A stretch of DNA of 8,976 bases from a virus, in the UHGV virus genome UHGV-1999812, one strand, 5' to 3'. Below are positions 1-8,976 of this stretch, piece after piece; position 1 is the first letter of the stretch; every line of letters begins with the position of its first letter. A model generated the notes under the pieces. It worked only from the letters and a program-made list of their open reading frames with translations. It was not told the origin of the DNA and did not search any database. The translations under genes and the position numbers were made by a program.

Positions 1-1011
1 CTTCTTTCTGGTGGCATTGACCCAAAAGAGCACAGAGAGAAACAGCGCCTTAGTGAAGTGATGAAGAGAGAGAACACCTTCAGGCATGTAGCTACGCTCT
101 GGTTTGAACTTAAAAAAGGGCAAGGACTCGCAGAAGATACACTACGCGATATATGGCGTTCGCTGGAGCGTAATGTATTCCCGTCAGTCGGTAACAGGCC
201 AATAGCAGACCTGATAGCAAGCAATTTCATCGAAGCATTAAAACCATTAGCCGCCCAGGGGAAATTAGATACCGTCAGAAGGACAGCACAGCGAATCAAT
301 GAGGTCATGTATTACGCCGTTAATACCGGAATGATTGCCGCGAATCCGGCATCAGAGATAAGCAAGGCATTTAACGCGCCAAGCGTTAAGAACATGCCAG
401 CAATACGCCCTGAAGAACTCCCCGAATTTATGCAGAAGCTGTCAACGGCACGAGTGGAACGACAAACGCGACTGGTTATTGAGTGGCAGTTACTGACAAT
501 TTGCCGACCAGGTGAAGCAGCTGGCGCGCGCTGGTGTGAGATTGATTTTGAGGCGAAGGAATGGCGCATACCAGAGCACAGACTTAAACAACGCAGGGAA
601 CACGTAATACCACTCTCGAAGCAGGCGTTAGCCATTCTGGATGTCATGAAGCCAATAAGCGGGCATCGTGAGTTTATATTTCCACACAACAGCGACCCGC
701 AGCGCCATATGTGCACACAAACAGCAAACGCAGCAATAAAACGCATGGGTTTTGGTCGGCGGCTGGTTGCTCATGGCTTGCGCTCAATAGCAAGTACCGC
801 ACTTAACGAGCAAGGTTTTGACTCTGACGTAATCGAGGCGGCATTGTCACACATAGACAAAAACGAGGTTCGCCGCGCGTACAACCGCTCAACCTATCTC
901 GAGCAGCGACGCCCGTTAATGGCGTGGTGGGGGAATTTTGTAGAGGCTGCTGCCAGCGGGAGCGTAAGCGCCACGGGTGGCTATCGTGGGTTAAAAATGG
1001 TTAACGGTTAA
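1..1011 (+). CDS. Tyrosine recombinase / integrase, P4-IntA type (5'-partial)
   Basis: Frame 1 is open from base 1 (LLSGGIDPKEHREKQRLSEV precedes the ORF-track Met at 58) to TAA 1009-1011. The translation carries catalytic-domain signatures of tyrosine recombinases: Arg in LTICRPGEA, His-x-x-Arg in LVAHGLRSIAST, and HIDKNEVRRAYNRSTY with the C-terminal Tyr. Roughly 70-100 N-terminal residues lie upstream of the window. Confidence 0.9.
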   Translation, partial: LLSGGIDPKEHREKQRLSEVMKRENTFRHVATLWFELKKGQGLAEDTLRDIWRSLERNVFPSVGNRPIADLIASNFIEALKPLAAQGKLDTVRRTAQRINEVMYYAVNTGMIAANPASEISKAFNAPSVKNMPAIRPEELPEFMQKLSTARVERQTRLVIEWQLLTICRPGEAAGARWCEIDFEAKEWRIPEHRLKQRREHVIPLSKQALAILDVMKPISGHREFIFPHNSDPQRHMCTQTANAAIKRMGFGRRLVAHGLRSIASTALNEQGFDSDVIEAALSHIDKNEVRRAYNRSTYLEQRRPLMAWWGNFVEAAASGSVSATGGYRGLKMVNG

Positions 1012-1015
1012 GGGC

Positions 1016-1912
1016 ATGGCAAACAAAAAAATAAACCTTCCTGAGAGGGATTATTACCCGTTAGACAAGGCAGCCAGAAGGCTTGGGTGTGACGTTGATG
1101 ACTTGATTCACTTCATCGCTACAGGGAAGATGTGTTTTTGGTACCGTCATCACATAGACGAGGCTTTGACATTACATAATTATAAAAACGCATTTAATAG
1201 TGTATCAGCATCAGATTATTATTATGAAAATGATGAAGGCGTATTCATCAGAGCAACCGACATATTAAAACTACTTGAATCTTCATATTTTGGTGAAAAA
1301 ATAACAAACAATGAAGACCAACTAACGGAAAAGGTATTTTTTTATTACGATAGTAGTTATTCCGAAACGGATATTTTTATATGCAATTATCAGAAATATA
1401 AACAAAGAAAAATCAGAACGCAGTTACCACATAAAATCAGGGTTGTGGCTTCAGGGCTTTTACAGGTATTTAATACAAGCATTGACATAGAGAACCTATC
1501 AAATGAAATTACAAATTGCTCTGTGCGCCGCATTGTTATAGCAGATAAAGCAGAAGAACCAGAGATAACAATAAACCTATATGGCAAAACAATAAATATT
1601 AGTGACGTTTTCATCTCAAAAGAAGAGATAAAAATAGTAATGAACGGCGGCAGACAACCAGGAGATATGGTAAAGGATTTTTCAGATAAACACGCCTTGT
1701 CGCATTCGCAGAGCAAGAAAACAACCAATCTTCAGGCCAGAGTTATCAAAAGACTAATCACCGCCATAGCCGGAGAAGAAGAGGCGTCAAACCCACGAAG
1801 GGCGCTTGAAAACGGTCACAGCAAGTTAAGCCGCGCACTAACCAAAGCAGGGGTTGATATCGGTGCCACACCAACATGCATAGGTAAGTGGCTTGCAGAC
1901 GTTGACGACTGA
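1016..1912 (+). CDS. Hypothetical protein with N-terminal AlpA/excisionase-like HTH and AT-rich central domain
   Basis: 298-codon ORF starting 4 nt after the integrase stop. The N-terminus YPLDKAARRLGCDVDDLIHFIATGKM fits the HTH pattern of AlpA/Xis-type regulators. The central ~500 bp (about 1190-1680) is far more AT-rich than the rest of the window, rich in Asn/Lys/Ile/Tyr codons. Followed by a strong terminator. No family recognised for the rest. Confidence 0.6.
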   Translation: MANKKINLPERDYYPLDKAARRLGCDVDDLIHFIATGKMCFWYRHHIDEALTLHNYKNAFNSVSASDYYYENDEGVFIRATDILKLLESSYFGEKITNNEDQLTEKVFFYYDSSYSETDIFICNYQKYKQRKIRTQLPHKIRVVASGLLQVFNTSIDIENLSNEITNCSVRRIVIADKAEEPEITINLYGKTINISDVFISKEEIKIVMNGGRQPGDMVKDFSDKHALSHSQSKKTTNLQARVIKRLITAIAGEEEASNPRRALENGHSKLSRALTKAGVDIGATPTCIGKWLADVDD

Positions 1913-1923
1913 CAGACTTCTGA

Positions 1924-1947
1924 ACATATGACCGCCCGTAATATTAC
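1924..1947 (+). terminator. Rho-independent terminator downstream of the 298-aa ORF
   Basis: Perfect palindrome GCCCGTAAT/ATTACGGGC (1924-1941) immediately followed by TTTTTT (1942-1947), 12 nt after the stop at 1912. Confidence 0.6.
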
Positions 1948-2050
1948 GGGCTTTTTTCGTAATATTCCGCAATGCCAGCTTTTCCCGTGTTTGCATATCC
2001 TTGAACAAGTTTAGGCAAGTTAGCGCCTGAAACAAAAGGAACGCAAAAGT

Positions 2051-2254
2051 ATGAACATTACAGAAAAGAAAATCCTTACAAAACGAGAAGTCGCAAATCT
2101 TCTTCGCCTTAGTACAACAAGCATTGACACAATGGTTAAGGCTGGTGAGTTTATTCCTGGCTTTAAGCGTGGATTACGCCGCGTTGGCTGGTTTGAGGAT
2201 GAGGTGAAATCATGGCTTGAGAAGAAAGTAGAGGAGCGTTATCAGCAGGAATAA
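2051..2254 (+). CDS. alpA: AlpA-family phage regulatory protein (excisionase-like HTH)
   Basis: 67 aa; LTKREVANLLRLSTTSIDTMVKAGEFIPGFKRGLRRVGWFEDEVKSWL matches the AlpA/Vis-like wHTH pattern (helix, GxFP-x-basic, W-x-E-x-E-V/I-x-x-W). AAGGA upstream of ATG 2051. Position downstream of an integrase is typical. Confidence 0.85.
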   Translation: MNITEKKILTKREVANLLRLSTTSIDTMVKAGEFIPGFKRGLRRVGWFEDEVKSWLEKKVEERYQQE

Positions 2255-2784
2255 TAAATTCCCATATGTGAAATATAAAAGCCACCAGCGCAGAAAATAA
2301 AACGCCTCACGTTATGCAAAACGGGTTAACCGTCGTGATGCCTTGCCGCATTCAATTAACGGCAGGTAAAAAATACCCGCAATGCAATAACACTACGGGC
2401 CATCAACGGAATATAAGGAGTTAACCGATGTGTATTGTATACAGTCGTGTGTATATTGCCACAGGTAACAGGCATCCGCGCCAAATACCCGCCAGAGAAA
2501 ATCAGTTGATCGCCAGTATCAAAAATGGCTATGATTCCCGCGCACCTCATAAAACGGGTGTCGGGATTGGAACCCCGCTGGAGATAAAGGCGATACAGAC
2601 GCCGAACGCGTCTTTTTTTGTATCGGCGCACACGCACACCTTATCAATGGTGGGCTGTATGGGGCTGACTTCGGTCAGGCTGGTTTCCTTTATCGCCAGT
2701 AGTTCCAACTCCGTGCAGTCCACCGCCAGCGAGATTGGAACCTCCAGCGGTGGGTATATCCCAACGATAAAGGAGGCTGCCATC

Positions 2785-2961
2785 ATGGCTACTACCCCTG
2801 CCCTCGTACATTCTCAAACTGCCTTTATCTGGCGCTTTATCATCTTTGGCGCGTCAGAATCCCAAATCATCCACGTAACCGCCTGGACGGAACGCGAAGC
2901 GCGTAACCGTTGCCCGTCCGGTTGTGTCGCTGTATTCGCCGCCCGTATTCGTCAGGGGTGA
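2785..2961 (+). CDS. Icd-like small protein (host cell division inhibitor Icd family), copy 1
   Basis: AAGGAGG (2770-2776) sits 8 nt before ATG 2785. The 58-aa product MATTPALVHSQTAFIWRFIIFGASESQIIHVTAWTEREARNR... has the F-x-WRF and T-x-x-EAR motifs I associate with Icd-like proteins, and ordinary codon usage. The in-frame ORF extends upstream to ATG 2428 (also with an AAGGAG RBS), but that extension has four ATA and three AGG/AGA codons and looks low-complexity, so I prefer the short start; the true start is uncertain. Confidence 0.55.
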   Translation: MATTPALVHSQTAFIWRFIIFGASESQIIHVTAWTEREARNRCPSGCVAVFAARIRQG

Positions 2962-3258
2962 GTCATGCTTAAAAACATGTTGATCGCCTCTTCTTTCGGG
3001 CTGTATGATGCCGGAGTCGTCCACATGGCGACCGGGTTTGACAGCCTGAATACTACAGCGGACAGCCGCTTACATTCCGATATGCGGTTTTTTTGTGTCC
3101 GTAAGCCTACCCATACCCGCATTATGGCGGGGCGTAACGGGGGAGCCTTTGCGCTCGCTGGTTCCTGTAGTGCCAGTCTGTCAACCCTGTTACGTCTCGC
3201 CACCATGTTTGACAGCGTAGTAGCGAGACTCCTTAATTTCACTACAGGAGCCTTTCAC

Positions 3259-3429
3259 ATGGCTGTATTCGCACGCCCTTACTTTGTCTGGCGCTTTATG
3301 CAGTGCCACCACAGCAACATCGATGTATTCACCGTTACCGCTGCCACTGAGCACGAAGCACGCGCACAACTTCCGCACACCCATCTGATTTTTGTCACCC
3401 TTATTCGTGAGGGGGTGAGTCATGCGTGA
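3259..3429 (+). CDS. Icd-like small protein, tandem paralogue (copy 2)
   Basis: AGGAG (3246-3250) 8 nt before ATG 3259. The product MAVFARPYFVWRFMQCHHSNIDVFTVTAATEHEARAQLPHTHLIFVTLIREGVSHA aligns with copy 1 over FxWRF ... VTA-TE-EAR ... IR-G. The in-frame ORF extends to ATG 2965; start uncertain. Its stop overlaps the next gene's start (GGGGGTGAGTCATGCGTGA). Confidence 0.5.
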   Translation: MAVFARPYFVWRFMQCHHSNIDVFTVTAATEHEARAQLPHTHLIFVTLIREGVSHA

Positions 3430-3736
3430 TGTGTGTAACACCAGAATACTTGAACAACTGGTTACAACCATAAAAACAGCTGACGCACGGGAAGCGAGAG
3501 CGATGTTTGATGATGCTGACTTCTACGCCCGCAAATTGCTTGAAGGGCTGGCTATCACAGGGCGCTTACTTTCTGGCATGAGTGACAGCATTGACCCTGA
3601 CATGGACGAACTGCGCAGCCTGGGCGATTCCATCGCTGTTACGGCTGAACTTGTGGCCGGATTCAGTGAGGTTGTGGAGGTGTACAACTGGCGTTGTCGT
3701 AACGGAGATATCAGTGCTGATTATCGCCATTCGTGA
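3422..3736 (+). CDS. Hypothetical protein (104 aa)
   Basis: ORF whose ATG is embedded in GGGGGTGAGTCATG and overlaps the upstream stop, suggesting translational coupling. Acidic, helical-looking sequence with ordinary codon usage. No family recognised. Confidence 0.55.
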   Translation: MRDVCNTRILEQLVTTIKTADAREARAMFDDADFYARKLLEGLAITGRLLSGMSDSIDPDMDELRSLGDSIAVTAELVAGFSEVVEVYNWRCRNGDISADYRHS

Positions 3737-3809
3737 TAAGGCAACGACAGGCACCGCTAACCGCATTTATGCAGCAACGGCGTAACTGACCAGAACAAAG
3801 GATAAAAAA

Positions 3810-4109
3810 ATGAACATGAAAAAAACTGGCTTAACTGCCAGCGGCAAGCCTCGCCCTGAATTTAAGCGCGGTGATATTTACCGCGACCAGTACGGCGGCA
3901 CGGTAATGATTAAGGGCGTGGCGGGGCGGTGCGTCACCTACCGCCGTAAAGGCTACGAATATGACTGCGTGATGCCTGTTTATCAGTTTTCCCGTGATTT
4001 TTCTCTGGTGCAGGCGGTACCGCGTAACGTGCCCACCAGCAACGTAAAGGCACTGGCAAAAATACAGAAGATGAAAAAGATGATTAACGCATTCAGGGGC
4101 AAGAAATGA
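3810..4109 (+). CDS. Hypothetical small basic protein (99 aa)
   Basis: AAGGA 6 nt before ATG 3810. Its stop TGA 4107-4109 overlaps ATG 4106 of the helicase gene (ATGA coupling). Lys/Arg-rich. No family recognised. Confidence 0.6.
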   Translation: MNMKKTGLTASGKPRPEFKRGDIYRDQYGGTVMIKGVAGRCVTYRRKGYEYDCVMPVYQFSRDFSLVQAVPRNVPTSNVKALAKIQKMKKMINAFRGKK

Positions 4110-5503
4110 AAAGCGCACCGAACTTAAAAAAACAGCCTTACGACAAAATGACCGAGGTCATTATTTTTGCGGGTAGTGATGCCTGGGCACACGCGAAGCA
4201 GTGGCAGGAGCAGGAGGGCCGACTTGCTGGCGATAATGTGCCACCTGTATGGCTTGGGGAGCAGCAACTGGCAGAACTGGCAGACACGAAAATCATTGAC
4301 GAGGGGCGCTATTGCGTCCGGCTGTACAAAGCAGGCCATATCAGACCATCAAATATTAATGCCATCGCGCAAAAACTGGCAGCGGCAGGCGTACAGGATG
4401 CGAATTATTACCCCGATGGGATGCACAGCCAGAAGCGGGAGAACTGGCGCGAATATCTGGAACGGGAGCGCGGGGAAAAGCAGGAAGAAAAAGGCCACCA
4501 GCGCAAAACAAAGCTACCGATGAGCGTTGGTTCTGCCGGATACGATACACAACTTGATTACGTGGTAAAGGGGATTATTCCGGCAGTATCGCTGTGCAGC
4601 ATATACGGGGCGAGCGGTTCCTATAAATCGTTCCTTGCGGGTTCGTGGGCGTGTCACGTTTCCACGGGCCGCCAGTGGGGAGGCCGCAGGGTGGCGCATG
4701 GCGCTGTTCTCTATGTGGTTGGTGAAGGCGGTATCGGCGTTCCGCGTCGTGTAAAAGCCTGGGAGGTTGTGCACGGTGAGCAGGTGAAAAATCTGTATCT
4801 GGTAAACCGCCCCATCTTTCCGGCTGCCCCGCTTGATGTTGATGAAATGGTTATCGCTGCCCGCCAGGTGGAACGGGAAACGGGTAAACCTGTACGCATG
4901 ATTATTCTGGATACGCTGGCGCGTTGCTTTGGTGGGAATGATGAAAATGATTCCCGTGATATGGGGGCATTTATCCGTGGGTGTGACGAGCTTAAACGGC
5001 GCACAGGGGCCACGGTGCTGGTGGTTCACCATTCCGGCAAGGATGAGACGAAAGGCGCGCGCGGTTCCAGTGCATTTCGTGCTTCGCTGGATGCTGAATA
5101 CCGGATACGCAGGGAGGACGCAGGAAGCGAAGCGCTGGTTATCTCATGTACCAAAATGAAGGACGCGGAGGAACTCAAAGAAGCCGCATATGACTTACGC
5201 GTGGTGGAGCTTTTTACCGACGCTGACGGGGAGTTAATTACGTCGCTGGTGGTGGTGGATAAGCCGCGGCATCCCGTTGAACCTGAGCGCATCGAGGAGG
5301 CAGGGAACAAGACGGAAAACCATACCGCGCTATGGGGGTGCATACGTTCACGCACACAGAACGGCGACAAGTGCACGATCCCGCTGTTACGTGATGACAT
5401 GAAACGGCTTGGGTATGACGTGAAAAACATGCGGCGATGGTTAGCAAAACTGGAGAAAGACGACGTTATCTATATCGACGGTGATGATGTAGGCCCACTG
5501 TAA
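4106..5503 (+). CDS. RepA/DnaB-like P-loop replicative helicase (RecA-fold ATPase) with N-terminal domain of unknown function
   Basis: 465 aa. Walker A-like SIYGASGSYKSFLA, Walker B-like VRMIILDTLARCFGG (hhhhD), and VLVVHHSGKDETKGARGSSAF resembling the sensor/arginine-finger region of RepA-type helicases. Followed immediately by an iteron cluster. Confidence 0.85.
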   Translation: MKSAPNLKKQPYDKMTEVIIFAGSDAWAHAKQWQEQEGRLAGDNVPPVWLGEQQLAELADTKIIDEGRYCVRLYKAGHIRPSNINAIAQKLAAAGVQDANYYPDGMHSQKRENWREYLERERGEKQEEKGHQRKTKLPMSVGSAGYDTQLDYVVKGIIPAVSLCSIYGASGSYKSFLAGSWACHVSTGRQWGGRRVAHGAVLYVVGEGGIGVPRRVKAWEVVHGEQVKNLYLVNRPIFPAAPLDVDEMVIAARQVERETGKPVRMIILDTLARCFGGNDENDSRDMGAFIRGCDELKRRTGATVLVVHHSGKDETKGARGSSAFRASLDAEYRIRREDAGSEALVISCTKMKDAEELKEAAYDLRVVELFTDADGELITSLVVVDKPRHPVEPERIEEAGNKTENHTALWGCIRSRTQNGDKCTIPLLRDDMKRLGYDVKNMRRWLAKLEKDDVIYIDGDDVGPL

Positions 5504-5703
5504 AAAAGTGAGTAGAAAAGTGAGTAATGGTGAGATTTTTACAAAATATTAACACGATTACTCACTTTCTCACCTGTATATAGGCAAAAAAGTGAGTAGT
5601 AAAAAATCACATATAAAACACGCACATAGAAAACCCGAAAATCACAGGTGAGACGAAGTGAGCGATTCCAAAAAGTGAGTAAAAAAGTGAGTAGTGGTGA
5701 GTA
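5504..5703. repeat. Iteron-like direct repeats (GTGAGTA core), putative replication origin
   Basis: At least six direct copies of (A)AAAGTGAGTA(G) at 5504-5514, 5516-5526, 5589-5600, 5670-5681, 5682-5693 and 5697-5703; degenerate GGTGAGA at 5529-5535 and 5647-5653; one inverted copy TTACTCACTTT at 5558-5568. AT-rich tracts flank it (5535-5556, 5747-5777). No long ORF with a ribosome-binding site. Confidence 0.6.
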
Positions 5704-5942
5704 AACAGCAAAAAACACAGAGCAGAGCAGCACGAAAACACAGAAAATCACTTTATTTTTATTTAAGTGTTTTGCTCATGAACGAAGGGCCACAACACGG
5801 CAGAAAGACACGCGAAAGCCCCCTGGCTGATAAGTGCATTCATGAGCACAGCAGCAACAAACTTTACCACGCTGACAGAGCGGGAGATTGCAGAAGCGGA
5901 ACAGGTAACAACCATCAACGTTAAAACCGGAGAGGTGGAATC

Positions 5943-6353
5943 ATGACAGCGCAGATAGCAGCTTACGGGCGACTGATTGACGACCCGCAGACAAAACAGA
6001 CCAGTAAGGGCACACCGATGACGCTGGCACGTATGGCGGTATCGCTGCCATGCAGTCAGGCACAGGACGGACAGGCGACGTTATGGCTATCAGTCCTGGC
6101 ATTTTGTAAGCAGGCCGACCAACTGGCAGGACATGAGAAAGGCAACGTAATCAGCGTATCCGGTGTGATGCAGGTCAGTCAGTGGACCGGACAGAACGGG
6201 GAAACGCGGCAGGGTTATCAGGTCATTGCAGACAGCGTAATCAGTGCGAAAACGGCGCGACCAGGTGGCAACAGACGCAGGACCACAGGCACACAGGGTA
6301 ATCAGCCACCAGCGGGAGGCGATGACCCTTACGGTGACAATATTCCGTTCTGA
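5943..6353 (+). CDS. ssb: Single-stranded DNA-binding protein (SSB family)
   Basis: 136 aa. The N-terminal two-thirds align by eye with E. coli SSB (WLSVLAFCKQADQLAGHEKGNVISVSGVMQVSQWTGQNGETRQGYQVIADSV vs [52 protein letters not shown]). Gly/Gln-rich linker and acidic tail DDPYGDNIPF ending in the hallmark IPF. GGAGAGGTGG RBS before ATG 5943. Confidence 0.85.
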   Translation: MTAQIAAYGRLIDDPQTKQTSKGTPMTLARMAVSLPCSQAQDGQATLWLSVLAFCKQADQLAGHEKGNVISVSGVMQVSQWTGQNGETRQGYQVIADSVISAKTARPGGNRRRTTGTQGNQPPAGGDDPYGDNIPF

Positions 6354-6363
6354 GGGGTGAACG

Positions 6364-6633
6364 ATGGTACATGACAGCATAGCGGAAGAACTGGAGGCGA
6401 AGGGCTTTTACCGGAGAGCGGCGGCGCGATGGGCTGAAGTGATGATGCTGGTGGAGACTGACAGGGAACGCGAACGGGTGGCAATGCGCAGGGCAGAGTG
6501 TTACGGGAAGACGCAGAGGCCACCGGAGCAACCGGATGATTTAGGCGGCCTGAAACGGGCGATTAAACGCACTGAAAAAGAAATGGGGATAGACGGGAGA
6601 GGCAAAAAAATCTGGCGTAGCTACCAGAAGTAA
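6364..6633 (+). CDS. PerC-family transcriptional activator
   Basis: 89 aa. N-terminal DSIAEELEAKGFYRRAAARWAEVMMLVETDRERERVAMRRAECYGK matches the conserved PerC core (E-x-K-G-x-YRRAA-x-RW-x-EV) as I recall it. ATG is 10 nt after the ssb stop. Confidence 0.75.
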   Translation: MVHDSIAEELEAKGFYRRAAARWAEVMMLVETDRERERVAMRRAECYGKTQRPPEQPDDLGGLKRAIKRTEKEMGIDGRGKKIWRSYQK

Positions 6634-6746
6634 GCACAGAGCCGGAACAGTCGGTTAGCCTTTCTGATTGTGTGCGTGTATATCGTTTTATTGCGACGTT
6701 AAATTAAACTGGTAGGACCAGATACACCAACGCAAGAGGCTACCGG

Positions 6747-7154
6747 ATGAACGAGCAAACCCATCACGTACCAAAAGACATCGAGCGGCTTAAATTCATC
6801 GACGCCATAGACAACGGAGATAAACCAGGTGATGCATGGTGTGATTCGCTTGCTGATATCGTGTCGCATTCAGTAGCGGAGCTTACCCGTAATGGCATGG
6901 AGGAGGCAGACGCTTTCAGAATCGCAAAGCGGGTTGTCGCTGCAATCGCCTTCTATGCTGGTGGGCGAAGTCTTTACCTTCCAACAGGCAGATCACTTTT
7001 CGCAGCATTGCGCGAATACGAGATTTACTACAGGTGGGATAACGGCGAAAAATTGCAGGTATTACGCAAAGAGTACGCAATATCCGAAACCCATATTTAC
7101 GACATCATACGACGACTGAGAAAGAAGCACGCCAATAAAATCACGCAAGACTAA
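6747..7154 (+). CDS. Mor-family transcriptional activator
   Basis: 135 aa. The C-terminal half FRIAKRVVAAIAFYAGGRSLYLPTGRSLFAALREYEIYYRWDNGEKLQVLRKEYAISETHIYDIIRRLRKK aligns with phage Mu Mor (EIVVAICKHLGGGQVYIPRGQALDSLIRDLRIWNDFNGRNVSELTTRYGVTFNTVYKAIRRMRR): GG-x-YIP-x-G, R-x-x-I, F-x-G-x-N, Y-x-I-RR-x-R. AGAGG RBS 7 nt before ATG. Confidence 0.8.
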   Translation: MNEQTHHVPKDIERLKFIDAIDNGDKPGDAWCDSLADIVSHSVAELTRNGMEEADAFRIAKRVVAAIAFYAGGRSLYLPTGRSLFAALREYEIYYRWDNGEKLQVLRKEYAISETHIYDIIRRLRKKHANKITQD

Positions 7155-7289
7155 CCACAGATACCAGCAGCAACCGTTATATTTGCGCCACTATCGCAAA
7201 AAATCCCCTTTCAGGGCATCACGGACGCCACAAAACACCAAAACGCATCAGAGAGCGAATCAGGCGCTTTAATGATGATTTGTTTTTTT

Positions 7290-7358
7290 GTGAAAGAAGG
7301 TGAAAGAAGGTGATTTTTGTGAAATTAAGCGAAATCACGTGAAATCAGGTGAAATAAT
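7290..7358. repeat. Seven 10-bp-phased GTGAAA direct repeats (protein-binding array or curved DNA)
   Basis: gTGAAAgaag (7290-7299), gTGAAAgaag (7300-7309), gTGAtttttg, tGAAAttaag, cGAAAtcac, gtGAAAtcag, gtGAAAtaat: the GAAA cores fall at 7292, 7302, (7312), 7321, 7331, 7341, 7351, one helical turn apart. Contains the palindrome TCACGTGA (7335-7342). Lies between the Mor-like gene and the RNA array. Confidence 0.6.
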
Positions 7359-7395
7359 GATACCCGTTCATCTGGTGCTACCAGACGAAACAGAC

Positions 7396-7424
7396 TTTAC
7401 CCGCGCATAATGCATGATTACTAT
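7396..7424 (+). promoter_or_regulatory. Putative weak sigma-70-like promoter upstream of the tRNA-like RNA array
   Basis: TTTACC (7396-7401), 17-nt spacer, TACTAT (7419-7424); predicted start near 7431, where the first RNA unit begins. Each hexamer matches consensus at only 4 of 6 positions. Confidence 0.2.
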
Positions 7425-7436
7425 TTTGCCTGGCTG

Positions 7437-7517
7437 TATGGTGTACTCTTAATCGGTAAAGCGGCATAAACCCTAACGGGCCATATGTTTATGTGGGTTC
7501 GACCCCCGCCACCAACA
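7437..7517 (+). ncRNA. tRNA-like structured RNA, unit 1 of 3
   Basis: T-arm GTGGG (7493-7497) / loop TTCGACC / CCCGC (7505-7509), with a U·G at the second pair; acceptor-like 3' strand CACCAAC (7510-7516) then unpaired A; D-arm-like TCTT / AATCGGTA / AAGC. The 5' acceptor strand is degenerate (5 of 7 pairs). No encoded CCA. Confidence 0.4.
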
Positions 7518-7540
7518 GCCAACTACCTTATCGCTTTTTT

Positions 7541-7631
7541 GCTGGTGTACTCTTAATCGGTAAAGCGGCACCCGCTTGTATAGCTTCCAGAAAGCGGGAT
7601 GTTTATGTGGGTTCGACCCCCACCACCAGCA
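7541..7631 (+). ncRNA. tRNA-like structured RNA, unit 2 of 3
   Basis: Acceptor-like helix GCTGGTG (7541-7547) with CACCAGC (7624-7630) and unpaired A7631; T-arm GTGGG (7607-7611) / TTCGACC / CCCAC (7619-7623); central 7-bp hairpin CCCGCTT (7571-7577) / AAGCGGG (7592-7598) with a 14-nt loop in the anticodon-arm position. Confidence 0.45.
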
Positions 7632-7654
7632 GCCAACAACCTCATCGCTTTTTT

Positions 7655-7736
7655 GCTGGTGTACGCTCAACGGGTAGAGTCGGTGCCAGCCTGTACAGGC
7701 TGATCATGTATGCGGGTTCGACCCCCGCCACCAGCA
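7655..7736 (+). ncRNA. tRNA-like structured RNA, unit 3 of 3
   Basis: Acceptor GCTGGTG (7655-7661) / CACCAGC (7729-7735) with unpaired A7736; D-arm GCTC (7665-7668) / AACGGGTA / GAGT (7677-7680); central hairpin CAGCC (7687-7691) / TGTACA / GGCTG (7698-7702); T-arm GCGGG (7712-7716) / TTCGACC / CCCGC (7724-7728). Non-canonical for a tRNA: 3-nt linker after the acceptor strand, 6-nt central loop, no CCA. Confidence 0.45.
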
Positions 7737-7965
7737 CGCCAAAAGCACAATTGCGCCATTTCTAAACCCACTTTAAAGCCACATAAAAACGGCTTTCGTA
7801 TCCCGTTTTATTGAGCACTCACGAAAAATGTGTACATACGCGTGTACATATACAAATTAACCCAACCCAAAGAACCGCATAATAAAAGCAATTAACGCAC
7901 ATACTAAACATTCAGATTCAATATTGAGTAACTCGTAACACTAATTCTTACTTTTCAGCCTTCAC

Positions 7966-8000
7966 AAATGCCGCCCACTCAAACAGAGCGGCATTTTTCT
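7966..8000 (+). terminator. Rho-independent terminator between island end and the dinD promoter
   Basis: Stem AAATGCCGC (7966-7974) / GCGGCATTT (7988-7996), 13-nt loop, followed by TTTTTCTT. Confidence 0.5.
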
Positions 8001-8090
8001 TCCCCGCAACTTCAATTCTGTTTTGCGTGCCTGCTCCAGATTTTGCGATGTTTTTTTGCCCAGCACACTGAGAACGTGAGATACTCACAA

Positions 8091-8106
8091 CTGTATATAA
8101 ATACAG
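8091..8106 (+). promoter_or_regulatory. LexA operator (SOS box) of the dinD promoter
   Basis: CTGTATATAAATACAG is a perfect CTGT-N8-ACAG palindrome with an AT-rich centre, about 45 nt upstream of the dinD start codon; it overlaps TATATAAAT, which could serve as the -10. Confidence 0.85.
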
Positions 8107-8151
8107 TTACAGATTTACTTTCTTTGCAATCGATATCACATGGAGTGGGCA

Positions 8152-8976
8152 ATGAACGAACATCATCAACCTTTTGAAGAAATACGGCATTATGGCACTG
8201 AAGGGCAAGAATTTTGGTCAGCTAGAGAATTGGCACCGTTACTGGATTATCGGGACTGGCGCAATTTTCAAAAGGTACTGGCCCGCGCGACTCAAGCGTG
8301 CGAAGCCAGCAATCAAGCTGCATCTGACCATTTCGTTGAAACCACCAAAATGGTTGTATTAGGTTCAGGGGCTCAACGAGAACTTGAAGATGTTCATCTC
8401 TCCCGCTATGCCTGTTACCTGGTAGTACAAAACGGCGACCCTGCGAAACCGGTCATTGCGGCAGGGCAGACTTATTTTGCTATCCAGACCCGACGGCAGG
8501 AGCTTGCTGACGATGAAGCATTTAAGCAACTTCGTGAAGACGAAAAGCGTCTGTTTCTGAGAAATGAGTTGAAAGAACATAACAAACAATTGGTTGAGGC
8601 AGCACAGCAAGCTGGGGTAGCGACAGCTACTGATTTCGCCATATTTCAGAATCATGGTTACCAGGGGCTGTATGGTGGATTAGATCAGAAAGCCATCCAC
8701 CAACTGAAGGGGCTGAAAAAGAGTCAGAAGATCCTGGATCATATGGGTTCAACAGAACTGGCGGCTAATCTCTTTCGAGCTACCCAAACAGAAGAAAAAC
8801 TCAAGCGGGATGGCGTGAATTCAAAACAGCAAGCTAATACCACACACTTTGACGTGGGTAGCAAGGTGAGGCAAACCATTCAGGAACTTGGCGGAACCAT
8901 GCCTGAGGAGTTGCCGACCCCGCAGGTCAGCATCAAGCAGTTGGAAAACAGTGTAAAAATTACAGAGAAGAAATAG
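8152..8976 (+). CDS. dinD: DNA damage-inducible protein D (DinD)
   Basis: 274-aa product beginning MNEHHQPFEEIRHYGTEGQEFWSARELAPLL, which I recognise as E. coli DinD. GGAG (8142-8145) lies 6 nt before ATG 8152; the ORF-track start at 8140 adds four residues (MEWA) and overlaps that RBS, so 8152 is preferred. LexA box upstream. Stop TAG at 8974-8976. Confidence 0.9.
   Translation: MNEHHQPFEEIRHYGTEGQEFWSARELAPLLDYRDWRNFQKVLARATQACEASNQAASDHFVETTKMVVLGSGAQRELEDVHLSRYACYLVVQNGDPAKPVIAAGQTYFAIQTRRQELADDEAFKQLREDEKRLFLRNELKEHNKQLVEAAQQAGVATATDFAIFQNHGYQGLYGGLDQKAIHQLKGLKKSQKILDHMGSTELAANLFRATQTEEKLKRDGVNSKQQANTTHFDVGSKVRQTIQELGGTMPEELPTPQVSIKQLENSVKITEKK

Follow-up and report, generated by a model that had tools for sequence, protein, structure and literature searches.

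Non-decoding RNAs with the shape of a tRNA are known, and to our knowledge very few of them have been assigned a function. The T4 species 1 and 2 RNAs and the Bacillus cereus 'tRNA-Other' are tRNA-shaped, do not decode and are encoded by phages or accessory elements, with a function that is regulatory or unknown. RNase P matures the antisense RNAs C4 of P1/P7 and CI of P4, the loops of which set immunity specificity. In engineered tRNA scaffolds a cargo RNA takes the place of the anticodon arm, and the tRNA body recruits host processing and confers stability. Here we compare these systems with an array of three tRNA-shaped units in the viral genome UHGV-1999812, of which a stretch of 8,976 nt (the window) was analysed; the results point to an undescribed RNA that is common to a phage and its parasite.

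The units lie in tandem on the + strand at 7437–7517 (unit 1), 7541–7631 (unit 2) and 7655–7736 (unit 3), and carry hairpins that we class as type A, B and C, respectively. They are direct repeats, as the initial annotation had it, with a mean column identity of 78% in an alignment of the three, and are joined by the 23–24-nt linkers ending in T6 that it had described: linker 1 (7518–7540, + strand) reads GCCAACTACCTTATCGCTTTTTT and linker 2 (7632–7654, + strand) reads GCCAACAACCTCATCGCTTTTTT. Only the sensitive mode of Rfam picked up the array, matching the tRNA model RF00005 at 7436–7517 (19.8 bits, E 0.23), 7541–7631 (33.9 bits, E 2.9e-5) and 7655–7736 (35.0 bits, E 1.4e-5), so that units 2 and 3 score above and unit 1 below the gathering score of 29 bits; in the RF00005 alignment, the anticodon region of all three units is a long insertion. 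Run over the whole window in gathering mode, the default, Rfam reported none of the units, ARAGORN called no tRNA or tmRNA in the window, and the array was not reported by Tandem Repeats Finder. Against R1, a family covariance model built in the present analysis, units 1 to 3 score 80.3, 83.3 and 86.7 bits, values that are partly by construction since the window units belonged to the R1 seed alignment. Phage members score 66–91 bits on R1, and independently of this model the window units are 83–90% identical to phage copies by BLAST. The units fit the R1 family core, GUGUAC-CUNAA-GGUANAG ... GGUUCGA with a variable hairpin at the anticodon position. The view that no protein gene is plausible here is also supported: a Pfam search of the open reading frames overlapping the array (7493–7765, + strand; 7473–7670, - strand) returned nothing above the family cut-off.

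The three repeats are structure-conserved RNA genes that fold on the + strand. Across 22 distinct homologues, 98.8% of the cells in the acceptor, D and T stems are paired, compared with 36–59% in slid controls; 7 of the 16 pairs show a double-sided change, 41 cells are compensated, and none of 500 shuffled alignments matched the observed covariation values. The stems also contain 22 G-U or U-G cells, which become A-C mismatches if read on the opposite strand; because these wobbles fit the + strand only, selection acts on RNA and not on a DNA cruciform. The initial annotation had proposed a structured RNA rather than a plain DNA repeat, to be checked by covariation at homologous loci, and the conserved stems bear this out. 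The substitutions it had read across the units are likewise as described: the T arm is G(U/C)GGG-UUCGACC-CCC(G/A)C with a second pair of U·G, U-A and C-G in units 1, 2 and 3, and a D-stem pair is U-A in units 1 and 2 and C-G in unit 3. The acceptor helix GCTGGTG/CACCAGC that it had assigned to each unit fails for unit 1, where an imperfect UAUGGUG/CACCAAC helix sits within a longer bulged helix (about 7433–7521).

The tertiary elbow nucleotides of tRNA accompany these helices, with U8, A14/A15, G18G19 and UUCGA forming invariant or near-invariant columns; each unit keeps the acceptor and T helices, U8/A14, the G18G19/T-loop elbow and an A15-U48-type pair. Some phage lineages have the T-loop substitutions TTCGCCC or TTCAACC, so the constraint is not absolute. 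Thermodynamic folding by itself is weak evidence: z-scores are -0.27, -2.44 and -1.53 for units 1, 2 and 3 and -1.49 for the entire array, folding of single sequences is not significant for unit 1 or the entire array, and the minimum free energy (MFE) structure of the array pairs units 2 and 3 incorrectly. The case for more than chance is made by the covariation across homologues.

Phage and prophage tRNA genes (RF00005) have in common with the array the cloverleaf core, the G18G19 and UUCGA elbow, the 7-bp acceptor, the 5-bp T stem and a tandem operon layout with U-rich spacers. Unlike in these genes, irregular hairpins with loops of 3–18 nt replace the anticodon arm, an extra base follows A9, and CCA is not encoded directly after position 73, being found 1–2 nt further on in satellite units only. 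The discriminator is variable (T, C or A) and in phages overlaps the stop codon of gene F. Each unit carries a different hairpin, as had been noted: that of unit 1 has a 4-bp base, CAUA/UAUG, with an apical CCC-UAAC-GGG above it; that of unit 2 a 2-bp base, a bulged A, a 7-bp stem and a 14-nt loop; and that of unit 3 is CAGCC-UGUACA-GGCUG with a 6-nt loop (loop sizes of 4 [UAAC], 14 and 6/4 nt, respectively). In MFE structures of 29 distinct members, the loop at this position comprises 3, 4, 6, 9, 10, 14 or 18 nt and never 7, and a standard 5-bp anticodon stem with a 7-nt loop (U33, R37) occurs in none of them. The units are non-decoding tRNA mimics, in line with the earlier statement that they are not canonical tRNAs.

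All three hairpin classes are present in phages too. The type-A hairpin is identical at 21 of 23 nt between the phage loci L004 and L024, whereas the phages overall are only ~73% identical, which argues that the hairpin is constrained and not free. Pairing is also kept in satellites, via wobble, by the changes 7570 A>G and 7571 C>T and by a C>U change in unit 3 of the satellite locus L062. Many hairpins are closed by stable tetraloops (UUCG, UCCG, UCAG), with which the arm could be a structural cap only. No phage hairpin identical to any satellite hairpin was found among 5426 E. coli genomes, IMG/VR, the GTDB representatives and a metagenome scan; a strict match of one hairpin per helper type therefore finds no support.

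We know of no sequence relationship between the array and the T4 species 1/2 RNAs or the B. cereus 'tRNA-Other', from which the array RNA also differs in having a single fixed position in Mu-like phages and in being amplified to a three-variant satellite array. C4 and CI RNAs (RF01695) are likewise phage or satellite RNAs, and two C4 matches lie in the same island (2643–2730 and 3120–3207); unlike the units, C4 is without a D/T elbow, and its model does not match the array. Like the array, the RtT repeats of the tyrT operon are tRNA-linked units that follow a gene in tandem, but the array units are full-length folds with covariation, have phage gene homologues and lack similarity to host tyrT. 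The RtT-like identity that had been considered can be set aside, as the sensitive Rfam scan gave no RtT match even at E ≤ 10. Engineered tRNA scaffolds share the architecture of the array, which is natural. The tRNA-like domains of tmRNA and Y RNA (YrlA) also mimic the top half of tRNA without decoding. Unlike in tmRNA, pair 3-70 of the array RNAs is C-G, U-A, A-U or G-C and never G-U, and there is no tag frame; in the sensitive Rfam scan the standard tmRNA model had no match at E ≤ 10 and the permuted model matched at chance level (E 1.9 and 7). Unlike Y RNA, the array has no Ro-binding module, and its topology differs. A type III toxin-antitoxin (ToxI-like) array was considered and rejected, as no gene follows the array within the island; downstream lie integrase arm sites, attR and the host gene dinD.

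Single-copy homologues of the units occur in Sp18-type Mu-like prophages, where they are located between the head genes F and G, antisense to both. The element is carried by 30 of the 34 phage loci that encode a gpG relative, and its conservation holds for G proteins that are as little as 60% identical. Phage Mu and L100 lack both the F–G gap and the element. Unit 1 is 90.5% identical to the F–G element of O157:H7 Sp18-type prophages, unit 2 is 82.6% identical to that of an O91:H21 prophage, and unit 3 is 86% identical to a type-C prophage element. In Sp18 itself (E. coli O157:H7 Sakai, NC_002695.2), the F–G gap spans 5058641–5058758 and the element is unannotated in the reference record. Phage copies have a sigma-70-like -35/-10 pair 8–14 nt upstream (e.g. 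TTGCCT-17-TAAAAT in L004), and no conserved hairpin or T-run that could serve as a terminator was seen downstream in six phages. Strong covariation extends through an entire clade of Mu-like prophages, at a constant place among the head genes. We also tried the C-terminus of F as the co-varying partner of the hairpin and rejected it: F tail classes track hairpin classes, but the adjacency of the two implies linkage. A homologous tail is also present in F of Mu, which does not have the RNA.

Family members outside the F–G context comprise L030, in the moron region of another Mu-like phage; the phage contig L054, with two divergent copies that each have their own TATAAT; and L028. A scan of species-representative genomes recovered two distant members only (Alishewanella and a cattle-gut MAG), and neither the rest of the helper, nor phage Mu, nor a capsid-forming PICI relative yielded a further copy of the element. 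The literature searched contains no mention of the present RNA, and the only Sp18 sRNA in an EHEC Hfq-CLIP supplement, EcOnc37, maps to 5077340–5077410 and not to the F–G locus. The prophage homologues, and the helper-derived look of the module described below, are visible by database search only and had no place in the initial annotation.

The island, a putative phage satellite, encodes an integrase, an AlpA-like HTH protein, Ash, an Icd-like protein, a RepA-type helicase, SSB and PerC (PGAP labels on the near-identical loci L001 and L002). A capsid-forming PICI has this backbone as well, and the capsid module looks to have been replaced by a Mu-derived module of a Mor-like activator, phased GTGAAA repeats and the array. 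The Mor-family activator gene (PGAP) lies at 6747–7154 on the + strand, and its product is 47% identical (E 8e-33) to a Mor-family protein of Sp18-type prophages. Seven GTGAAA-type repeats in a 10-bp phase (7290–7355, + strand) are a candidate mimic of repeats at the helper left end, the pac position, where AGTGAAAGGAGGTGAAATCACC lies between the first two TTTGATACC repeats; the right end is without them. The pattern GYGAAA-N4-GYGAAA has 4 matches against 0.02 expected, and direct BLAST of the satellite repeats against the helper left end aligned 21 nt only (E 0.39). These repeats accompany the Mor–array module across islands with different replicases, and differ between the window and L062 by 1 change in ~75 nt. 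A Mor-like activator and a candidate packaging-site mimic adjoining the array are reminiscent of known satellite hijack modules (P4 delta, PICI pac/cos mimicry and capsid-forming PICIs); neither a satellite of Mu-like transposable phages nor one that carries copies of a helper RNA gene is described in the literature searched. The Mor–array module was found in 14 of 5426 E. coli genomes. An Sp18-type gpG region is present in 12 of these 14 compared with 216 of the 5412 others (4%), and STEC lineage structure may lie behind part of this co-occurrence. Judged by sequence comparison, both the homology to the phage element and the co-occurrence of satellite and helper are established.

A candidate sigma-70-type promoter precedes unit 1 at 7396–7424 (+ strand; TTTACC, 17-nt spacer, TACTAT), with a predicted start near 7431. 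It agrees with the consensus at 8 of 12 positions, below the 9/12 rule of the scanner, which did not list it; in L062 the spacer and flanks differ, but the two hexamers are conserved. The dyad CTGGTGCTACCAG (7372–7384, + strand), ~50 nt upstream of the predicted start, may be a regulator site, and a second copy, CTGGTAGGACCAG, lies upstream of mor at 6709–6721. Two matches to this dyad (CTGGT-N3-ACCAG) were found against 0.17 expected; both arms are conserved in L062, and the dyad is confined to satellite loci and absent from phage loci. No promoter or operator motif common to the array promoter and the helper late promoter regions was seen. The suggestion that the Mor/PerC module might drive the array can thus be refined: given its own candidate promoter, the array would not require read-through from mor.

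Taken together, we tentatively favour, with somewhat less than even confidence, the reading of the array as a small operon with three genes for non-decoding RNAs that mimic tRNA. A satellite descended from a capsid-forming PICI would have acquired them, along with the Mor-like activator and the repeats, from Sp18-type Mu-like helpers, and the RNAs would act in trans by mimicry of a helper RNA. The promoter just upstream of unit 1, possibly with help from the upstream dyad or read-through from mor, would give a single precursor; a multi-unit precursor, as initially suggested, is plausible. Host tRNA-processing enzymes, namely RNase P along with RNase E and 3' exonucleases acting on the U-rich linkers, would convert it into three stable L-shaped RNAs of ~80–90 nt, in which the tRNA part would provide a scaffold for processing and stability and the hairpin a specificity module. 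In trans, the array RNAs may copy the F–G RNA of the helper prophage or compete with it for a partner, most likely a protein. With three hairpin classes, several helper types would be covered, which would help the satellite to exploit late development of the helper or to interfere with it. That the RNAs are transcribed, processed and active in trans, that the hairpin is a specificity module, and what the partner is, are all inferred.

If this reading is correct, the island would be the first candidate satellite of transposable phages, its array a natural RNA of the type "tRNA scaffold plus cargo hairpin", and the pair a testable case of a parasite copying a regulatory or structural RNA of its helper. 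A bolder and rather unlikely extension is that Sp18-type phages and an unrecognised satellite of these transposable phages have in common a new class of RNA, in which a tRNA scaffold bears a class-specific hairpin, and that the three satellite variants are molecular mimics that capture or block a helper factor that reads the F–G RNA, forming an RNA-based layer of helper–satellite conflict beside the Mor-like transactivator and the pac-site mimic.

The position of the phage element raises the alternative that it is a cis-encoded antisense RNA to the F stop codon and the G 5'-UTR. Satellite copies would then pair in trans with the late head mRNA, leading to cleavage by RNase III or RNase E and lower F/G expression, and the tRNA shape would serve stability and end maturation. 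Position and antisense orientation are retained in the 30 phage loci, the -35 of the phage promoter overlaps the ribosome-binding site of gene G, and the similarity between units and helper elements includes long identical D-arm and T-arm runs. A trace of the antisense F 3' end is moreover kept in the linkers: linker 1 looks like the final codons of helper gene F read on the antisense strand, which suggests capture from phage to satellite. RNase P-type antisense RNAs, the C4 family, are already present in the same island. However, invariant tRNA elbow nucleotides would serve no purpose in an antisense RNA, neither the Shine-Dalgarno sequence nor the start codon of G is covered by the RNA, and members exist outside the F–G context (L030, L028 and the satellites). 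The G-U pairs indicate selection on the tRNA-like strand only and not on the mRNA strand, satellite hairpins match no phage hairpin, and tetraloops are poor kissing loops. We therefore regard pairing with the head mRNA as unlikely.

The distribution of conservation over the tRNA mimic could also fit a decoy for a tRNA-directed host factor, in defence or anti-defence, with the top half titrating a nuclease, toxin or modifying enzyme. Lacking an anticodon loop, such an RNA could be neither cleaved nor employed in translation, the hairpin would be a cap, and three copies would provide dose. Conservation is indeed concentrated in the tRNA core while acceptor pairs 1–4 and the discriminator vary freely, the hairpins are closed and often end in tetraloops, the phage gene looks like a moron-type insertion with a constitutive-looking promoter, and the satellite has several copies. 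A cap would not, however, account for hairpin classes that are conserved over long divergence, nor dose for arrays that gather different hairpins and not identical copies. No tRNA-targeting system is linked to the locus, and the tight link to one Mu-like phage clade would be left without a reason, making a decoy improbable in our assessment.

The array lies 3' of mor on the same strand with no terminator detected between them, and its units might thus punctuate the 3' end of the perC–mor transcript in cis, as RNase P sites or blocks to 3' exonucleases and not as free RNAs. Here the conserved candidate promoter, 280 nt after mor, speaks for separate transcription; the phage element is a stand-alone gene opposed to its neighbours, and punctuation leaves the three different hairpins unexplained, so that we give it little credence.

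Marginally less credible still are inert relics, that is, decaying pseudo-tRNAs or integration scars hitch-hiking with the Mor module. The degenerate acceptor end of unit 1, below the tRNA threshold, would suit decay, as would an array size of 2 or 3 units that varies via recombination between units. Comparison of the window with L062 argues otherwise: the unit bodies are ~98% identical (3 differences in ~170 nt) and far more conserved than the flanking non-coding DNA, with linker 2 at 83% and mor plus spacer at 88–90% identity. By this comparison, the array units in satellites are under purifying selection, and pairing is kept by substitutions. Integration scars, which the initial annotation had offered as att-site relics, were rejected: the units are full length and not 3' fragments, and in L002 the integrase arm repeats AAAAAGGCATAC lie ~160 nt and the att core, inside mdtP, ~220–250 nt beyond the array, both unrelated to the units. 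Nor do the units derive from the 3' end of a host tRNA or tmRNA, as it had also allowed; no similar host tRNA was found, and anything similar to them occurs in only 230 of 5426 E. coli genomes, which does not correspond to a universal host gene.

It is highly improbable that the element acts at the level of DNA, for example as a packaging signal, an origin or a gyrase site in the middle of the phage genome. In Sp18, which measures 38.8 kb, the copy lies ~17.7 kb in from the left end, near the position of the strong gyrase site of Mu, and the satellite array adjoins the pac-like repeats; yet the one-strand G-U wobbles indicate RNA and not a cruciform, a dedicated promoter is conserved, and the Mu gyrase site lies in the G–I gap, which Sp18-type phages also have.

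Least probable of all are decoding tRNAs, perhaps with unusual loops for recoding, which the PGAP labels, the RF00005 scores above gathering and a GUA in the loops of units 2 and 3 might suggest but which are contradicted by the anticodon arms, the negative ARAGORN result, the displaced CCA and variable discriminator, and the absence from the units of the long variable arm of bacterial tRNA-Tyr. PGAP labels unit 2 'tRNA-OTHER' in L001 and L002 and unit 3 'tRNA-Tyr' (GUA), against which its 6-nt palindromic loop argues; such labels mislead tRNA gene counts and prophage/attB prediction in STEC genomes.

The three tandem tRNA-like units at 7431-7760 of the window are conserved RNA genes that combine a tRNA core with a non-anticodon hairpin, are homologous in a putative phage satellite and its presumed helper, an Sp18-type Mu-like prophage, and are under selection in both. 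The units are direct repeats with a mean column identity of 78% in their alignment. A sensitive scan matched them to the Rfam tRNA model (gathering score 29) with 19.8 bits for unit 1 (7436-7517; E 0.23), 33.9 bits for unit 2 (7541-7631; E 2.9e-5) and 35.0 bits for unit 3 (7655-7736; E 1.4e-5), while ARAGORN, Tandem Repeats Finder and the default Rfam scan reported nothing in the region. Sequence, alignment and folding bear out the base-level description in the initial annotation, including a T-arm whose second pair is U·G, U-A and C-G across the units, a U-A versus C-G change in the D-stem, a 7-bp stem with a 14-nt loop, a CAGCC/UGUACA/GGCUG hairpin, and linkers of 23-24 nt with T6 at their 3' end. 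Its acceptor-like helix holds except in unit 1, where the acceptor is degenerate and embedded in a longer, bulged helix. Energy-based folding gave z = -0.27, -2.44 and -1.53 for units 1, 2 and 3 and -1.49 for the whole array, which by itself is poor support for structure.

Of 5426 complete E. coli genomes, 14 carry nearly identical arrays, and PGAP labels unit 2 "tRNA-OTHER" and unit 3 "tRNA-Tyr". Single units, 83-90% identical, are present in more than 200 additional E. coli genomes; there they sit inside Sp18-type Mu-like prophages, in the 118 nt that separate gene F (head morphogenesis) from gene G (virion morphogenesis). More distant members turned up when IMG/VR, GTDB representative genomes and metagenomes were scanned by pattern. 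Among 22 distinct sequences, pairing in the acceptor, D and T helices reaches 98.8%, and 7 of 16 pairs show double-sided change (41 cells), whereas slid controls are only 36-59% paired and none of 500 shuffles equalled the observed values. There are 22 G-U or U-G cells, at which the complementary strand would have A-C mismatches. This pairing, the double changes and the one-strand wobbles therefore show selection on an RNA of the tRNA-like strand, as had been proposed from the window, and the stems are kept in homologous loci rather than broken by substitution. The invariant columns (U8, A14/A15, G18G19 and UUCGA) belong to the elbow and core of the tRNA fold.

The satellite Mor protein is 47% identical (E 8e-33) to a Mor-family protein of a Mu-like prophage, and at least one Sp18-type gpG region is found in 12 of 14 satellite genomes (counted as chimeric-probe places less satellite-only places) versus 216 of 5412 (4%) other genomes. 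Relative to the satellite locus L062, the window is 88.4% identical in mor, 89.6% in the mor-to-array spacer and 83% in the linker, whereas the unit bodies show 3 differences in ~170 nt and the repeat block 1 in ~75 nt. Several inter-satellite differences preserve pairing by wobble. Purifying selection therefore acts on the array in the satellite.

In every phage copy a -35/-10 pair precedes the acceptor 5' end by 8-14 nt, as in the phage locus L004 (TTGCCT-17-TAAAAT), where the -35 overlaps the G ribosome-binding site on the other strand. F and G overlap in phage Mu and in L100 (G protein 64% identical), both of which are without the F-G element. Among 34 IMG/VR loci that encode a protein related to this G, 30 carry it ~40 nt upstream of G, and the four loci without it have G proteins of at most 64% identity; it is thus an insertion of the moron type, retained within a single clade of Mu-like phages. 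One member (L030) is placed elsewhere, in an accessory region that follows the major head gene, and a metagenomic phage contig (L054) carries two divergent tRNA-like genes on the minus strand (1205-1278 and 1543-1620), ~265 nt apart and each preceded by its own TATAAT, so multi-variant sets arise in phages too. The Sp18 F-G gap of O157:H7 Sakai (NC_002695.2 5058641-5058758) has no annotation in the reference record; in other RefSeq genomes the same element is labelled tRNA-OTHER or, in some, not at all.

Hairpins in the anticodon position fall into three classes told by the arm base: A, CAUA...UAUG; B, CA-stem-bulged A-UG; and C, GGU...AUC. Units 1, 2 and 3 of the window are A-like, B-like and C-like, respectively. 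The type-A hairpin is identical at 21 of 23 nt between L004 and L024, phages only ~73% identical overall; type C is retained among phages with differing promoter regions, and type B is highly variable, its hairpin nonetheless preserved through compensatory change. The hairpin is not free to drift. L004 and L005, 98% identical over 18 kb, differ in a 300-nt patch that takes in the N-terminus of G, the hairpin, and the C-terminus of F, a pattern consistent with recombination at the conserved D and T arms. None of the phage hairpins found is an exact match for a satellite hairpin. Some type-C phage copies (L077, L079, L086, L088, L091, L093 and L074, L075) have T-loop substitutions, TTCGCCC (universally conserved A58 position) or TTCAACC, and may be inactivated or tolerated variants. 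A distant member (L101, 5877-5957), read by eye, has an anticodon-position arm of 5 bp with a 7-nt loop, UUAGUCA, and a U33-like base, and may be near the ancestral tRNA state.

We tentatively favour a mechanism in which a candidate promoter, TTTACC-17-TACTAT (7396-7424), starts transcription of the array, perhaps controlled via a CTGGT-N3-ACCAG dyad also present before mor. The host tRNA pathway would cut the precursor at the U-rich linkers, and the RNAs would work in trans, the tRNA body providing the scaffold and the hairpin the specificity; the satellite versions would copy the helper's RNA or compete with it. The units resemble tRNA-scaffolded RNAs and other non-decoding tRNA mimics. RNA genes of this kind are already known; the helper-satellite setting is unusual and testable, and we found no description of the array RNA in the literature searched or in Rfam, nor of a satellite of Mu-like phages in that literature. 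The single phage units lie on the strand opposite both F and G, and antisense control of the F-G mRNA is an unlikely but appreciable alternative; a purely antisense role is disfavoured by the invariant elbow, by wobble pairing confined to one strand and by members that lie outside the F-G gap. Less probable is a decoy for a tRNA-directed host factor; hairpins conserved by class and arrays of several variants speak against a decoy that is scaffold only. Punctuation of the mor transcript at its 3' end is improbable, an inert relic marginally more so, and an element acting at the DNA level very improbable.

A true tRNA is the least probable reading: the units lack the anticodon loop that defines one. 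Consistent with the earlier view that they are not canonical tRNAs, the arm in that position ends in loops of 3, 4, 6, 9, 10, 14 or 18 nt among 29 distinct members, and the discriminator is variable and overlaps the F stop codon in phages. The only basis for the "tRNA-Tyr" label of unit 3 is GUA within a 6-nt palindromic loop. An RtT-like identity, suggested in the initial annotation, was not recovered, as the Rfam scan and ARAGORN gave no RtT and no standard tmRNA match even at E <= 10; the sole tmRNA-type matches were to the permuted model (E 1.9 and 7). Nor do the units qualify as C4 or type III antitoxin RNAs. Similar sequence occurs in just 230 of 5426 E. coli genomes, so they are not host tRNA copies, and no universal host tRNA or tmRNA gene matches them. 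Integration scars or att-site relics, likewise once considered, are rejected because the units are full length and, in L002, an island inserted in mdtP, the integrase arm repeats and att core are located ~150-250 nt past the array and bear no relation to it. ORFs overlapping the array have no Pfam match above the family cut-off, in keeping with the assertion that no protein gene is plausible there.

The window encodes an integrase, an AlpA-like HTH protein, Ash, a RepA-type helicase, SSB and PerC, with Icd-like genes assigned from PGAP labels on the near-identical islands L001 (dinD site) and L002. An isrK-like RNA (2542-2618) and two C4 antisense RNA copies (2643-2730 and 3120-3207), all above Rfam gathering scores, overlap an Ash-family ORF (2428-2961) and the next ORF (2965-3429), counterparts of PGAP Ash or Icd-like genes in L001 and L002; together they form an apparent P1/P7 immI-like immunity region of the island. 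The SSB-PerC part of the backbone matches 854 genomes. In E. coli O157:H7 PA20 (L038, 1544-15975) the same integrase-to-PerC backbone is followed by capsid, protease, portal, HNH and terminase genes, the capsid-forming PICI layout. In 14 genomes this late module is swapped for a Mor-family gene, seven GTGAAA repeats and the array, which in the window's island occupy the capsid-to-terminase position of L038.

The seven GTGAAA-type repeats (7290-7355) are in 10-bp phase (4 phased matches vs 0.02 expected) and go with the Mor-array module, not the replicase, occurring in islands with different replicases. They are similar to AGTGAAAGGAGGTGAAATCACC repeats present only at the helper left end, between the first two TTTGATACC end repeats, the position at which Mu has pac; direct BLAST against that end aligned just 21 nt (E 0.39). 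The block is possibly a packaging-site mimic. The CTGGT-N3-ACCAG dyad occurs upstream of mor (6709-6721) and of the array (7372-7384; 2 matches vs 0.17 expected), in satellite loci only, and so may be an operator common to both. The window is itself a mosaic: 1-7744, integrase included, is 98% identical to L002, and the arm region and flank at 7745-8976 match dinD-site islands (L001, L039 and L056), so the integrase and right att arm may be non-cognate. NZ_AP045179.1 (JNEC-KY203) has three Mor-module places, one adjoining dinD and one near 4.61 Mb, plus a Mu-like gpG region.
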